Of a stretch of DNA of 16,838 nt, positions 3,001-9,000 are shown one piece after another. The stretch comes from a virus, in the UHGV virus genome UHGV-1653291; one strand, written 5' to 3'. The first letter of the stretch is position 1. Every line of letters begins with the position of its first letter. Made by a program: the position numbers.

Positions 3001-6000
3001 TAAGCGTATTGTTATTCAGGAGCAGATGGAGAATGTATGGCGTCAGAGGAAGACGGCCAGAGAGATAAAGGCAAAACAGAAAGCAGCGGAGAGAGCTGCG
3101 CGTCTTGTTCGGGAAAAGGGAGAGGCCGAACTTCGTCATCAAATCACCAGAGAGGTTAGTCAGGAATTTGCTGATGGCATGTATCCTGGTGCTGACCTTG
3201 CATATTTACGATCCCTCGTTGAGCAGCGTTATAACAGGTTAAGAAAGACCTGGAAATCACTCCAACATTAACCCACCTGAATGATGAATCCGGTTTTACC
3301 GGAGGATTATCTACGTCGCAATAAAATATCTGTTCAAAAAACAATCTAAATTAATTTTCTCTAAACCTGAACACAGCAAAAATATCGCCTTTACAGGCAT
3401 CGGCTAATAAAGTTATCCACAGTTCTGATATGTATATGCAAATGGTTTTTTATAATAGATGCACTAAACAAATAAATGCAAAATCACTTTCTTTTATTAA
3501 GACTTTCTTTATTTAACTTACACAGGCTTTGCCTGTGAATATGTTCGCCCTTGCAGCGAGCTAAAGCTCGCGCCGGTTCGAGTCGCTACGCTCAAATATA
3601 CCTCCTCCGGCACTTGCCGGAGGCATGGAGCAGCCTGATCATCCTTTTCGAAACGGCACGTTTCGAACTATACAAAATCAATTTATATAAGGCCGAAATA
3701 AGGCCTACGGCCGGGCTTTGCAGGAGGAAGGGGCGAGCCTTATCAATAAACGTCGATAAATACGCACACAGTAGCCATCAGAACGCGATAAAATGTAAGA
3801 AACATCATTTCCTATTAGACATAGAAAACTTGTCTTATACGCAATGTAGTAAATTTCTATTGCCACATAGGAAAAGATTTCCTACCATCGTAGATATAAT
3901 AAATGGAGATGGTTATGGATAAAGATACTGTTTTAAAAATGTTGAATCCGGCTTGTTTAAAAAAAGCGGATGAATGGGAATCTCCTACATGTGGAGAAGT
4001 TCGGGCAGTCATTGGCCTGACCGGAATGAGCGGCTCGCAGTTAGCCAAAAAACTAGGCTTAAAAGATAGTCGCAATGTTCGCAACTGGCAGATGTTAAAG
4101 GAGTCCACATCCAGATCCAGCATTCCGTATGCAGCCTGGGCGCTGCTGTGTTACTTCGCTGGGTTAGGGTTAATCTTCATTGATAACAAAACAGATGTTT
4201 GAAACATGCAAATATGAGGTTTGTTATGGAACTTGTACGCAAAACACGCAAAGAGTTCTTGGACCTGTATCGCATGGGAGCTTTCACTTGTGTTGTGGCT
4301 ACCCAGGACGAAGTGACAAAAAGCTGGCGGCTTTTTGCTCTCAATAAAAAAGGGATTGCCGTTTTCATTGAAAAAGCCCGTGGTGGTATCCGCGAATGGG
4401 CGGGATTGAATTATGTGGCTGATTTTTGCGCAGCTATGGGGATTCGTCGCTGGGAAGTCCATATGCCAGGAGTAAAGTCACAAAAATAGGGCTTTCGCGT
4501 CGAAAATGAGGCGAAACTGAAAACGAGATTTCATTAACAAATAAGCAACATAAAAAACGGTGGAAAACGCCCAGGAAAACATGATCTTTTGAGCGGATTT
4601 TTTAGATCCGACAATGAACGGTGATCCGGTGGTGCCGATAACGTCCATTATGTTAAATGGCCCCGTTTTTCTTGAAATTATAACCCACAGGTTATATAGT
4701 TAGTGATATAAACTACAGGTTATAGGATTGAGCATGTGGACGGTACTTTTTAGCCAGCGATTTGACGACTGGCTAAATGAGCAAGAAGACGCTCTTCAGG
4801 AAAAGGTTTTGGCTGATTTGAAAAAGCTACAGGTTTACGGACCTGAGTTACCCAGGCCATATGCCGATACCGTAAAAGGTTCTCGGTACAAAAATATGAA
4901 AGAGCTTCGCGTTCAGTTTTCTGGCCGTCCGATAAGAGCCTTTTATGCGTTCGATCCGATTCGCCGGGCTATCGTTCTTTGTGCAGGAGACAAAAGTAAC
5001 GATAAGCGGTTTTATAAAAAACTGGTGCGTATAGCTGAGGATGAGTTTGCAGCACATCTGAACACACTGGAGAGCAAGTAATGAGAACATTAGATGAGGT
5101 GATTGCCAGCCGTTCACCGGAAAGCCAGGCGCGAATTAAAGAAATGGCAGATGAGATGATTCTTGAGGTCGGCTTGCAGATGATGCGTGAAGAACTCCAG
5201 TTATCACAAAAGCAGGTTGCTGAGGCGATGGGTATAAGCCAGCCAGCAGTAACAAAGCTGGAGCAGCGCGGAAATGATTTAAAGCTGGCGACATTAAAGC
5301 GTTACGTTGAAGCTATGGGAGGCAAATTAAGCCTGGATGTTGAGCTTCCCACAGGAAAACGAATAGCGTTTAACATCTGATCAGAACGAATGATAAGCCC
5401 CTGTTGCAAAGGGGCTTTTTTGTGCTCATGGAATTATATAATTATAGATTTATATAAAAAGTGCTTTACAGGTGGGAAAATATTTCCTAGTGTTATACCC
5501 GAAACCGAGCGATACCCGCCCTGGTTAAACCGGAGATAACCCGATGAAAGTACAAGACCGTGAAGTAGTAAAAAACCTCCTGCAATACCTGACCTCAAAA
5601 AACCTGACGGGCAGCGTTGAGTACCGTGAAGCGTTAAAACATTTCAACGTCACTACGGTTTATCGTTGGGAAAACAAACATTCTGAAAGACCGTATGTGG
5701 TGGATGTTTTTGCGCCTGATATTGAGTGCGGTTTTGAGCGCCATTCATTCAAAAAGAAACATTCCGCTGATGTTTTTTGTGAGGTTGTATGTGCGGCAGG
5801 AGATGATGAGTGATGCGTATTTCCTTCAAACGTGCGACTGAGCAGCAACGCAAAGAGTTCCTGGCTGATGATGTTGCGGCCGTTTATGACCTCATGAAAG
5901 AGGTTGTGGAATCAGGAAACTACACGGCGGCAAAGATGCTTAAACTGCAATTCTTGCTGGGCGACCTGAAATACAAATCCGAAGTTGTCGCCGGACGACG

Positions 6001-9000
6001 CGAGCATTAAACCGTAACGATAACGAACAACGAGCCTCGGCAATTGCCGGGGCTTTTTTACATCCAGACAAAGGAGAACATGGGATGCCTTCGACAAGCA
6101 CCAAAAAAGAAATGGCGGTTAGTGATGTGCTTTACGCGCTTTCGACTATATGTGACGGAGCAATGATGAGGATGAAAGTCCTCCATGAAGCATACGGAAA
6201 AAGTCACGATGAGGCAGCTAAAGAGTGCCTGAATGAGATTGTGGACTTCATTGATAGCCATCGTTCAGTTATATCGCGTCAACCGACAGCGTCGTCCATC
6301 ACGATTAGCGCACCGGTTATCAATATATCAGTAACTGCGGCATGTAAATCAGCAGCGGAAGATGATCGTGCTTATGCCGAGTGATTTGTTCTGGTTTCCG
6401 CTTCCAATAAGAGATTTGTTGGTATTTCTAGCTGGCGCTTACGTCTGGAGAAAAGCGAAAGACACCTCGTTATCTTTGAGGTTTGTCTTAGCTATATCGG
6501 TAGGAACCGCGCTGGGGACGGCGTATCTCTTGACATTACTGGAGATATTCATTGAAGAATGGATAGTTTCATGAATGGTGTTGGCATTTTTCTGATGGTT
6601 GTGGCCGTGTGTTTTTGTATCTCGCTGGTGGTTATCGCTGGTGTCCTGTGGCGCATCTTAGTGGCGCAGAGGGCTTTTCGGCTTAAGCGGGAGCAAATGC
6701 GCCTTGATTTATATCGAAAGTAACTCTTACAGCCTCGCGGTGTCGCGGGGCTTTTTATTTTCAGGTGATGTTATGGAAAAGAAAGAAGATAAACCGATTG
6801 CCATTGGTGCAGAGTCTGTTCCGTTTAAGTTTGAATTATCCCAACTGGTAACAATGCGTATCAGTGAAGAGTGGGGAGAAGTTCAAGCCCGTGCTCAGTA
6901 TGCAAATGGCGAAAACCAGTATCTGATTCACTATCAGGCGGCTGATGGCCGTGCTTCCACAGAGTGGTTCGGTGAGTCGATGCTGATTGCGATGGAGGAT
7001 AAACGTCATCCTGGCTGCCCTGTTTTTGCCTGTATTGATTTGCCAGAAGGCGCGGTACTTGAAGACGACAAAGAAGAATGGTCGCCTGATGGCGAACTTG
7101 TCATTACCGGAATCGTGGATGGTAAGCCGGAATATTCCCGTATTGAGGTAAATAACGGCCACATCTGTTTGATCCCTGCGTAACGCATTACAGCAGCTCT
7201 TGTGCTAATCAGGGGCTGCGATAATGCGCAAACCAAAGCTGCCTCATTAACTCCTGCTCGCTGTGGAGTTAATGCTGGTGGCTTTTTTATTACTGGAAGG
7301 TGGGCGACCGCCGTCAGTTGCGACCTGACGACAGTCATTCATACCCACAGGGTGCCGTGGATACAAACCGAGGCCCACTTGCTTGCACAAGCGAGGGGAT
7401 TTTAGCGGATAAACGGCATGACAAAACATCTTAATGTGGTTTCTTTACCACTTTCTGTGTTGATTGGTTATGAAAAGAACGCTCGCACACACTCCGTGGA
7501 GCAGGTAGATCAGATTGTTGCCAGCATACAGGAGTACGGATGGACTAATCCGATCCTGATAGACGAGAACAACGTTGTAATTGCTGGTCATGGTCGAATT
7601 GCTGCGGCCACTCAGTTGGGGATGGATGATGTTCCCTGCATTGTTCTGGCTGGGCTAACGGAGAATCAGAAGAAGGCATATCGTCTGGCCGACAACCGTA
7701 TTCCGCTGAATGCTGGTTGGGATGAAGAGTTGTTAAGCGCGGAGCTTGCAGATCTTGCGGCCGATGATTTTGCTCTGGACTCAATTGGTTTTACTCAGCG
7801 CGAACTGGATAACTTATTGAGTGCGGCGGTCTACGATGACACAGAGGGTATGGATATCCCATTTGAGAAGGATGAGGCCAAATCAGGCGTAAAAGTTCAG
7901 TACCTGTCATTTGGAGGTCATAAAATCCCGGCAACGGATGAGGAAGCGGATCGTTTTGACTGCGCGGTGTCTCGTTATGTTGATGATAATGGCAGCTATA
8001 TCGGATTTGTATCCGCATTGCTGGCTGGGGAGGTGTGCTGATGCTTCACCTCAATTACGACATAACGCACCTACGCGGCGCGGAATATAACCCGCGTTTT
8101 ATCGGTGAGGATGATCTTGCGAGGCTGGCGGAAAGCGTCAGGGAGCTGGGGCTTGTGAAGCCATTGATAGTGCGCGGCGATTTGCTGGTGGCGGGACACC
8201 AAAGGACGAAGGCGCTACGTAAGTTGGGAATAACGCGTGCTGCGGTGTATGTGTTGCCCTGTGAAACGACGGTATACGACGAAGTACGGTTTAACCAACT
8301 GCATAACGGAACGGATTTTGATAGCGGAGATGAGCGTTGCAGGGTGTCCGGTCTGGAAGATAAGCATGGTTTTGTTCAGGTATCGGCAAGCCAGATCTCA
8401 GGCAATATGCGCGCGAAAATGGCATATGTTCGAAAGAACATAGCGGAACTGGTTATCAAGTATGGTCCGTGGGGTGGTTGTGTTGCTACTCAGTCTGGTG
8501 AGGTTATTCACTGTGCTCAGTATGCATTAGCAGCGAAAATGACGCGCACACCGCTAACGGTGTTTGTGATCCCTGATGTTGAGAAGGAAAAATACCAAAG
8601 TTATCTGAATAAAACTTATGGTGTATTTGAGTATTCTCATCTGGAGAAAACAACATACATCCAGACGTATGCGCAGCTTAAGCGGTTGCGTAATGGTGGC
8701 AGCCTGAAATCAAATCTGTATGAGTCGTTGATCCTCCCGATCATTGCCAAGACGCCAAGAGGAATTGATTTTGGTTCGGGGCAGGGAGACTACGCGCGAA
8801 TGCTCAGGGCAAAGGGATATAACCTGCATGATCTCGAGCTTTTCCGCCGTAAGGGCGCTGGAAACACTCTGGATAGGGCCGCAACAAACCGGATGATTGA
8901 TACGCTGGTGGACGACTTAAAAACGCGAGGGCGTTACGACTACGTGATTTGCGATAGCGTTTTGAACTCGGTCGATAGTGTCGAGGCTGAATGGTCCGTT

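Follow-up and report, generated by a model that had tools for sequence, protein, structure and literature searches.

A mosaic, terminator-punctuated accessory-gene segment in a myovirus-type phage-plasmid of Escherichia coli

Background

The morons of lambdoid phages, such as bor and lom of phage lambda and gp15 of HK97, are said to have been defined by Hendrix and co-workers. A string of six small open reading frames (ORFs) that resembles them in part occupies positions 5381-7290 of the viral genome UHGV-1653291, which is one complete metagenome contig of 16,838 bp from ENA and is called the window below. From left to right, the string consists of a promoter-leader module (P_rep), the genes A89 and B65, the terminator T2, the genes C99, D66 and E50, the terminator T3, the gene F136 and the terminator T4 (Table 1). 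It is an accessory, mosaic segment of an already known kind, lying in an under-described phage-plasmid of Escherichia coli.

As with the lambdoid morons, small accessory genes lie here between conserved modules, are followed by an intrinsic terminator and are replaced among collinear genomes. Like bor, the string is placed after the lysis genes and before the packaging genes, and its first unit, cassette 1 (P_rep, A89, B65 and T2), has the full promoter-gene-terminator layout. In contrast to morons, the second unit (C99, D66 and E50) and the third (F136) are promoter-less, the G+C content is not atypical, and the promoter of the first unit is not private to it but part of a module of which each genome has three copies.

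Lambda-type late operons offer a second comparison. In these operons, internal terminators such as tR' are passed by Q-modified RNA polymerase. The present segment is similar in that strong intrinsic terminators lie inside a long unidirectional array and have to be crossed to reach the packaging and structural genes, and a reference plasmid of the family has a further terminator just upstream of its holin gene. It differs in that no Q-like or other antiterminator was recognised among the proteins scanned and no qut- or put-like element was identified.

Results and discussion

The source element and its relatives

Positions 5381-7290 match 62 plasmids at 95-99.7% identity, 61 of them from Escherichia (E. 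coli and E. albertii) and one from Klebsiella, and almost all of these plasmids are circular, non-mobilizable and 47-50 kb long. Three Yersinia pestis myophages (vB_YpM_39, vB_YpM_41 and vB_YpM_44) also match. Among 5,426 complete E. coli genomes, the segment was found in 74, nearly always on a plasmid, and strain ATCC 25922 (plasmid CP009073 / CP037450) is one of the carriers.

NZ_CP064105 (locus L003) was taken as the full reference copy of the element. Its genes for replication and control encode RepA, a small ParA and a CI-like repressor; its lysis genes encode two holins, a GH108 endolysin and an Rz-like spanin; and its virion genes include those for terminase, portal, capsid, contractile tail and tail fibre. 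Because plasmid, lysis and contractile-tail virion genes are all carried by this one molecule, the source element is a myovirus-type E. coli phage-plasmid of about 48 kb, and 5381-7290 is its variable accessory-gene segment. A literature search found no paper describing this 48-kb family, which is under-described and is carried by the reference strain ATCC 25922. Two names that might have been attached to the family were rejected: the pSLy3/SSU5 group is unrelated and consists of siphovirus-type elements of about 100 kb, and vB_YpM_HQ103 is a 32-kb Peduoviridae phage.

Table 1. Positions of the features of the accessory-gene segment and of the adjoining toxin-antitoxin module in the window
Feature	Position	Strand	Description	Evidence
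Toxin	4728-5081	+	Gp49/HigB-RelE-like toxin	Pfam Gp49, E=2.4e-23
Antitoxin	5081-5380	+	Helix-turn-helix (HTH) antitoxin	Pfam HTH_3, E=3.9e-10
T1	5395-5421 (stem 5395-5417, T-run to 5421)	+	Intrinsic terminator assigned to the RelE/HTH module	-15.1 kcal/mol
Iterons	5426-5457	.	AT-rich repeats TTATAnAw phased at 8 bp, 3-4 units, at the 5' end of the P_rep repeat	3 matches vs 0.06 expected in the window
P_rep	5432-5556	+	Promoter-leader module of 115-125 bp, 3 copies per genome	Local blastn against the reference, alignment of copies
Promoter candidate	5465-5493	+	Sigma-70-type, TTTACA-17-TAGTGT	Best candidate in 5381-7420
A89	5544-5813	+	89 amino acids (aa), ribosome-binding site GGAGA, first gene of cassette 1	phrog_6143 (unknown function), E=5e-52
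B65	5813-6010	+	65 aa, start shares one base with the A89 stop (TGATG)	phrog_6621, E=1e-48
T2	6032-6059 (stem 6032-6055)	+	Intrinsic terminator, 10-bp stem, U6	-18.8 kcal/mol, z -4.9
C99	6085-6384	+	99 aa, ribosome-binding site AAGGAGA	phrog_8319
D66	6374-6574	+	66 aa (70 aa from ATG 6362), two moderately hydrophobic helices around an RKAKD loop	ORF, hydropathy
E50	6571-6723	+	50 aa (54 aa from ATG 6559), strongly hydrophobic N-terminal helix, basic tail of +5.5	ORF, hydropathy
T3	6731-6761 (stem 6731-6752)	+	Intrinsic terminator, 9-bp stem, U-rich tail	-16.8 kcal/mol
F136	6773-7183	+	136 aa, acidic, isoelectric point 4.5, ribosome-binding site AGGTGA	phrog_1935, E=6e-65
T4	7235-7288	+	Intrinsic terminator, long stem followed by U6, before the ParB-like gene (7418)	-26.3 kcal/mol

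One candidate promoter slot followed by promoter-less genes

A first-pass annotation of the window, made from the sequence alone, had described the region as self-contained cassettes delimited by three near-identical plus-strand terminators (T1, T2 and T3). These three are the best plus-strand matches in a terminator scan of the whole window, which listed 25 sites against 15.5 ± 4.1 in shuffled sequences, and their folding energies correspond to z-scores of -2.7 to -4.9 relative to shuffled controls. Their existence and positions are therefore confirmed by both scan and folding. 'Near-identical', however, is an overstatement. T2 and T3 are identical at 19 of 26 nucleotides, which is partial agreement, whereas T1 has in common with them only the design AGCC.C...GGGGC plus T-run, which is generic for terminators. 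The fourth terminator, T4, had been missed and is unrelated in sequence to T1-T3. T2 and T4 are present in all 16 of the distinct versions of the region compared below. T3 has a C-to-T change in one version, where pairing is kept as G-U, and is absent where the 3' end of E50 and F136 are replaced.

The claim that the terminators delimit separate transcription units did not hold, since a promoter candidate precedes the first unit only. This candidate, which contains a palindrome (GGAAA..TTTCC) inside its spacer, is the sole promoter-like element in 5381-7420. The gap from the end of T2 to the ATG at 6085 is 25 nt and that from the end of T3 to the ATG at 6773 is 11 nt, and promoter scans found no promoter-like site in either. 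Units 2 and 3 are therefore not self-contained, because the gaps leave no room for a promoter and none was found.

P_rep itself is a repeated module, and its 37 copies from 29 loci precede only three gene slots. Copy a lies after the MT-A70 methylase gene and before the 89-aa ORF, copy b after the toxin-antitoxin module and before a 126-aa gene, and copy c before a DUF3560 gene. In the 37 copies, the -35 hexamer is either TTTACA or TTTGCA, a spacer of 17 nt occurs in nearly all of them, and the -10 hexamer is TATGAT, TATGGT, TAAGGT, TAGTGT, TAATGT or TATTCT, that is, always TAnnnT, with the variation confined to positions 3-5, the least important of the hexamer. The 50-nt leader is almost invariant. 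Because the -35 and the spacer are kept and the -10 is always TAnnnT over the 37 copies, there is good indirect evidence that P_rep holds a working sigma-70 promoter. In the reference plasmids, the stop codon of the MT-A70 gene falls within the first bases of copy a, and, as no terminator lies between the two, transcription from upstream can enter the region.

Starting from the terminators, the conservation and coupling of the ORFs, the mosaic breakpoints, the repeat with its iterons and the TAnnnT pattern of the -10 hexamer, we infer a single rightward path from P_rep, with C99, D66, E50 and F136 expressed by read-through and T2-T4 grading the expression; about an even chance is given to this reading. 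Transcription would start near 5495 from the sigma-70-type promoter, and P_rep, A89, B65 and T2 would form the only complete promoter-genes-terminator slot, in which the genes are exchanged among relatives. It would be one of three slots per genome with a common promoter, iterons and leader. C99, D66, E50 and F136 have good ribosome-binding sites or overlapping stop and start codons and no promoters, so that they would be made only from transcripts passing T2 and T3. The read-through may come from leakage of P_rep or, more probably, from transcription during lytic growth that arrives from the upstream lysis and MT-A70 genes. T2, T3 and T4 would then be serial attenuators or insulators, because the downstream genes would be reached only by read-through; they would lower expression step by step and, in the plasmid state, prevent P_rep transcription from reaching the ParB-like, terminase and head genes. 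D66 and E50 probably encode small proteins of the inner membrane, for which translational coupling would provide a fixed ratio.

Several points weigh against this reading. The -10 hexamer of the window, TAGTGT, matches at 3 of 6 positions, and a scan for 9-of-12 consensus matches did not list the P_rep promoter. PHROG and Pfam searches of the proteins scanned upstream of the holins in the reference plasmid found no antiterminator family, although late transcription would have to cross three or four strong terminators. The late genes, moreover, may have their own promoter downstream of T4.

The main rival is that the whole string is late, being transcribed from a promoter upstream of the holins by a terminator-resistant RNA polymerase, with P_rep minor or inactive and the terminators silencing the plasmid state. 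Such an arrangement would agree with the common orientation of the reference plasmid, in which the early region, lysis, cassette, packaging and tail genes are all on one strand, with the canonical terminators found there just before the holin gene and after the tRNA, and with the occurrence of F136 homologues in late operons (see below). However, the lack of an antiterminator homologue among the scanned proteins of the reference plasmid counts against this rival too, and the conserved -35, spacer and TAnnnT favour a working promoter in P_rep. It is regarded as rather unlikely.

Mosaic versions of the region

The region from P_rep to the ParB-like gene was compared among 16 distinct versions. 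In cassette 1, the swapped genes fill a stretch with precise limits, the end of P_rep (5549/5567) on the left and the start of T2 (6015-6026) on the right. One alternative content is an unrelated 86-aa gene together with a different 65-aa gene (the latter in L009 and L010); another is a deletion that joins the first eight codons of A89 to B65, giving a 73-aa fusion. In the second unit, C99 changes at 6266 to a 151-aa form, and homology returns at 6375. At the right end (about 6696 to 7185), a DUF2513 gene that brings its own terminator takes the place of F136, T3 and the 3' end of E50. Other versions have a fragment of a tail-fibre-assembly gene fused to F136, and homology among all variants returns at 7185. 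One IMG/VR genome (L029) runs directly from C99 to T4, without D66, E50 and F136.

Several of these breakpoints fall within genes and not at unit borders, and the cassette pattern is clean only in the first slot. The cassette idea holds for this slot because its flanks are a promoter and T2. The conserved flanks (P_rep, T2 and T4) between which genes are exchanged provide an experimental handle on how such elements display accessory genes.

The first-pass annotation had called the region moron-like, and this description survives in part. The mosaic swapping of genes and the terminators support it, while promoters of their own for units 2 and 3 and an atypical base composition do not exist: G+C is 0.43-0.49 across 5201-7600, compared with 0.31-0.55 elsewhere in the window. 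In its full form, the description would imply three moron-like units that are independent of one another, equipped with a promoter and a terminator each and expressed from the prophage, with the membrane pair acting in exclusion, abortive infection or as a toxin. A terminator after each unit, mosaic gene content among relatives and a location typical of accessory genes, with the lysis module on one side and the packaging module on the other, are all as such a reading predicts. Nevertheless, neither promoter-like sequence nor space for it precedes units 2 and 3, T1 lies outside the string, the G+C content is ordinary, no PADLOC match was found and breakpoints cut through genes, so that three independent units are considered improbable. 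The corrected picture, one promoter slot followed by promoter-less genes separated by terminators, is a fairly ordinary phage feature.

The small hydrophobic pair D66 and E50

Two overlapping genes for small hydrophobic proteins had been predicted at the end of the second unit, including one of 50 aa that was missing from the ORF track supplied. Both ORFs are present and conserved and are coupled through an ATGA overlap of the D66 stop and the E50 start; E50 is annotated by PGAP in relatives as WP_001523048.1, while D66 is usually unannotated in RefSeq. Fifteen of the 16 versions keep D66, in one case with an in-frame deletion of 30 nt. Where the 151-aa gene is present, the D66 start codon is GTG or TTG, preceded by AAGGA. 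E50 has two conserved in-frame ATG codons (MDSFMNG), the longer form adding Asp and not a basic residue. In L015 and L016, the D66 stop lies 12 nt further upstream and overlaps the other conserved ATG of E50 in the same manner. Substitutions stay hydrophobic (V/L/I/M/F), and the ratio of nonsynonymous to synonymous polymorphism (pN/pS) of D66 is 0.45 in frame compared with 0.68 and 1.10 off frame.

On these grounds, D66 and E50 are judged to be real genes, though dispensable ones. Not all of the data agree with them being genes. The pN/pS of E50 is 0.85, which is weak, and E50 has no clear Shine-Dalgarno sequence; in vB_YpM_41 (L008) a 1-nt deletion in E50 causes a frameshift, and L029 lacks D66, E50 and F136 altogether. 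The loss in L029 and the deletion in vB_YpM_41 are also the reason why these genes are taken to be dispensable for the phage.

It might be supposed instead that D66 and E50 are untranslated, that is, frames that happen to be open within a spacer conserved as an untranslated or regulatory sequence. In addition to the frameshift and the full loss just mentioned, another frame gives a lower pN/pS at E50, the Shine-Dalgarno sequences are weak, L004 and L016 carry a fusion, and the usual omission of D66 from RefSeq is in keeping with this view. On the other hand, most versions have both frames open, the ATGA overlap persists in two registers, hydrophobic residues are retained, the 30-nt deletion in D66 is in frame, the pN/pS of D66 is lowest in the proposed frame, and the GTG or TTG start of the 151-aa variants stands behind AAGGA. 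The lack of translation is therefore considered very improbable.

Small phage membrane proteins that block superinfection include Imm and Sp of T4 and gp15 of HK97, and the toxic Hok peptides are known for the coupling of mok and hok. D66 and E50 are like these proteins in their similar size, in having one or two predicted transmembrane helices and in the basic tail, and E50 may be compared with Hok as a downstream small ORF translationally coupled to an overlapping upstream ORF. They differ from them in that there is no sequence similarity, antisense RNA or Rfam hit, and in that the upstream D66 is itself a conserved hydrophobic protein.

Both proteins are, like C99, restricted to this lineage. 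D66 is known from six protein clusters, all within the phage-plasmid family, and E50 from 14, which all match only the E50 query and none of which has a Pfam domain. No PADLOC match was obtained for the pair, and no homologues were found outside the family, so that a part in superinfection exclusion, abortive infection or toxicity finds no support.

A Hok/Sok-type toxin was considered and not adopted. E50 overlaps D66 by ATGA, but D66 is itself a conserved two-helix hydrophobic protein and more than a leader, and there is no antisense-RNA family. Rfam gave no match at gathering thresholds, and at E<=1 only small-RNA hits at chance level that lie on the terminators. On the minus strand, the sole promoter-like site (6864-6835) agrees with the consensus at 9 of 12 positions, as chance alone would give. 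A holin/antiholin pair was likewise not adopted, since the reference plasmids have a complete lysis cassette about 2.2 kb upstream of D66/E50; the tRNA, the MT-A70 gene, P_rep, cassette 1 and T2 lie between the two. Holins have one to three transmembrane helices, a charged C-terminus and a dual-start motif; E50 has one predicted helix, a basic tail and the two ATG codons, but its longer form gains Asp and no basic residue.

A89, B65, C99 and F136

All six ORFs of the string exist as predicted. The earlier view that their products are not recognisable by eye was borne out, in that remote-homology searches placed none of the six in a characterised family: sequence searches against Pfam, NCBIfam, PADLOC and PDB gave nothing significant, and A89, B65, C99 and F136 belong in PHROGs to families of unknown function only. 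A role of any of the six products in exclusion, anti-defence or the control of lysis would, if shown, be new.

A89 shows about 40% identity to the N-terminal part of a 227-aa protein found in the PEp14 group of Erwinia phages. C99 has only three relatives at E<=1e-10 in an exhaustive HMMER search of 1.84 billion representatives, these being the family itself, and residues 1-61 are common to C99 and the 151-aa form found in many relatives. AlphaFold2 models of F136 (from a 38-sequence alignment) and A89 (from the single sequence) reached a predicted local distance difference test score (pLDDT) of 46 and 51, respectively, and had no Foldseek match at E<=0.001; being of low confidence, they were not used for any conclusion.

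F136 is more widely distributed: its relatives form 76 protein clusters, from Escherichia, Salmonella, Citrobacter and Enterobacter. Its homologues lie directly downstream of the lysis cassette in each of the six prophage loci examined (L018-L023). In three lambdoid prophages, the homologue is located between tiny membrane or lipoprotein ORFs and the terminase gene, and in three P2-like prophages between a LysB-like DUF2514 gene, the start overlapping, and gpR. Because the homologues sit inside late operons after the lysis genes, this context suggests that F136 acts late in lytic growth and may have a conserved lysis-adjacent role.

The start of F136 is taken as ATG 6773, as in PGAP. An alternative 159-aa form starting with TTG (6704-7183) would cross T3, and gene-caller ORFs of 60-67 aa span T4 on both strands (7202-7405 on the plus strand and 7247-7429 on the minus strand); all of these are probably spurious, because the calls conflict with the terminators. 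A hairpin without a U-run follows the F136 stop (GCATTACAGCAGCyCTT...AGGGGCTGCGATAATG; 7184-7230 in the window and 4298-4350 in L018), and it travels with the F136 gene, since the homologues in lambdoid prophages have it too. In another frame within A89/B65, a hydrophobic ORF of 48 aa (MWWMFLRL...; 5695-5841) is open in every version that bears A89. It is probably a by-product of sequence conservation.

Iterons of the P_rep module

The most interesting by-product of the analysis is the repeated iteron-promoter module. In the reference plasmid, the three-unit iteron pattern has 32 matches compared with 0.05 expected, which form eight intergenic clusters: three in the copies of the repeat, two in other gaps of the rightward array, two upstream of parA and one before a gene for an 82-aa protein. 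In NZ_CP064105, iteron sites are at 724-755, 5239-5275, 6375-6406, 38095-38118, 42465-42494, 43166-43275 and 46994-47030. The parA gene, which lies outside the window, encodes a 217-aa protein with matches to Pfam CbiA, ParA and MipZ and to phrog_164. The 82-aa protein encoded after it, also outside the window, has no Pfam or PDB match, and by eye its sequence looks like a basic, disordered tail ahead of a strand-helix-helix segment.

ParG of TP228 and omega of pSM19035 are small ribbon-helix-helix partition proteins that bind dispersed operator/centromere repeats. The present element is similar in that repeats phased at 8 bp flank the parA promoter and recur before other promoters of the replicon, and in that the putative partner of its small ParA has 82 aa and the tail and fold elements suggested by eye. 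It differs in the repeat sequence, which is TTATAnAw here, in the absence of a Pfam or PDB match for the 82-aa protein, and in the location of the par genes outside the window. From this likeness, a small ribbon-helix-helix-like partner of ParA may use the iterons as its centromere or operator sites and serve as a global regulator.

A bolder proposal would make the 82-aa partner the repressor of the three accessory slots, and D66/E50 a two-component inner-membrane system for exclusion or the timing of lysis. This combination is considered improbable. If true, a putative P_rep/iteron regulon would link plasmid maintenance to the expression of phage genes, and D66/E50 would form a new two-component inner-membrane system.

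The contig junction and the toxin-antitoxin module

The window is collinear with no relative. By local alignment to the reference plasmid, 1979-5370 corresponds to the side with repA and the toxin-antitoxin module (3551-4202 being hypothetical genes beside repA), and 5427-16838 corresponds to the part from just past the MT-A70 methylase gene through the head genes. Compared with L003 and L024, the join skips about 15.7 kb containing the immunity, par, early, lysis, tRNA and MT-A70 genes. It falls in the repeat that occurs three times per genome, namely in the P_rep copy of the window, which is of the b type over its full length, the copy-a sequence beginning at the ATG.

The junction of T1 with cassette 1 was not found in the plasmid, phage, E. 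coli, IMG/VR or GTDB representative-genome collections. Because no other searched genome has it, the junction (5427-5547) is either a rare recombinant that has lost about 15.7 kb or an assembly chimera formed through the repeat, and users of the contig should be aware of the latter possibility.

T1 had been taken as the left boundary of the string, and this assignment must be withdrawn. T1 adjoins the string only in the source contig among the genomes searched. In the reference plasmids, the toxin-antitoxin module adjoins repA, and in the ATCC 25922 plasmid T1 is followed by copy b of the repeat and then by a different gene. To judge from this arrangement of the sequence, T1 is the terminator of the RelE/HTH toxin-antitoxin module and not of the cassette string. 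The toxin-antitoxin pair (4728-5380) has 93-95% DNA identity to its counterpart on the small Y. pestis plasmids of the pPCP1 type (pla).

Neighbouring genes

Downstream of the segment, three genes with ParB/Srx domains precede the terminase gene (7418-9414 and 10707-11297), one of them fused to a methyltransferase domain. Ahead of the third ParB/Srx-like gene and the terminase gene, an AT-rich gap at 10401-10800 (G+C 0.31), with inverted repeats nearby at 10562-10632, may hold a packaging site or a late promoter. In relatives, the MT-A70 methylase gene lies just upstream of the cassettes, and the neighbourhood is rich in DNA-modification genes.

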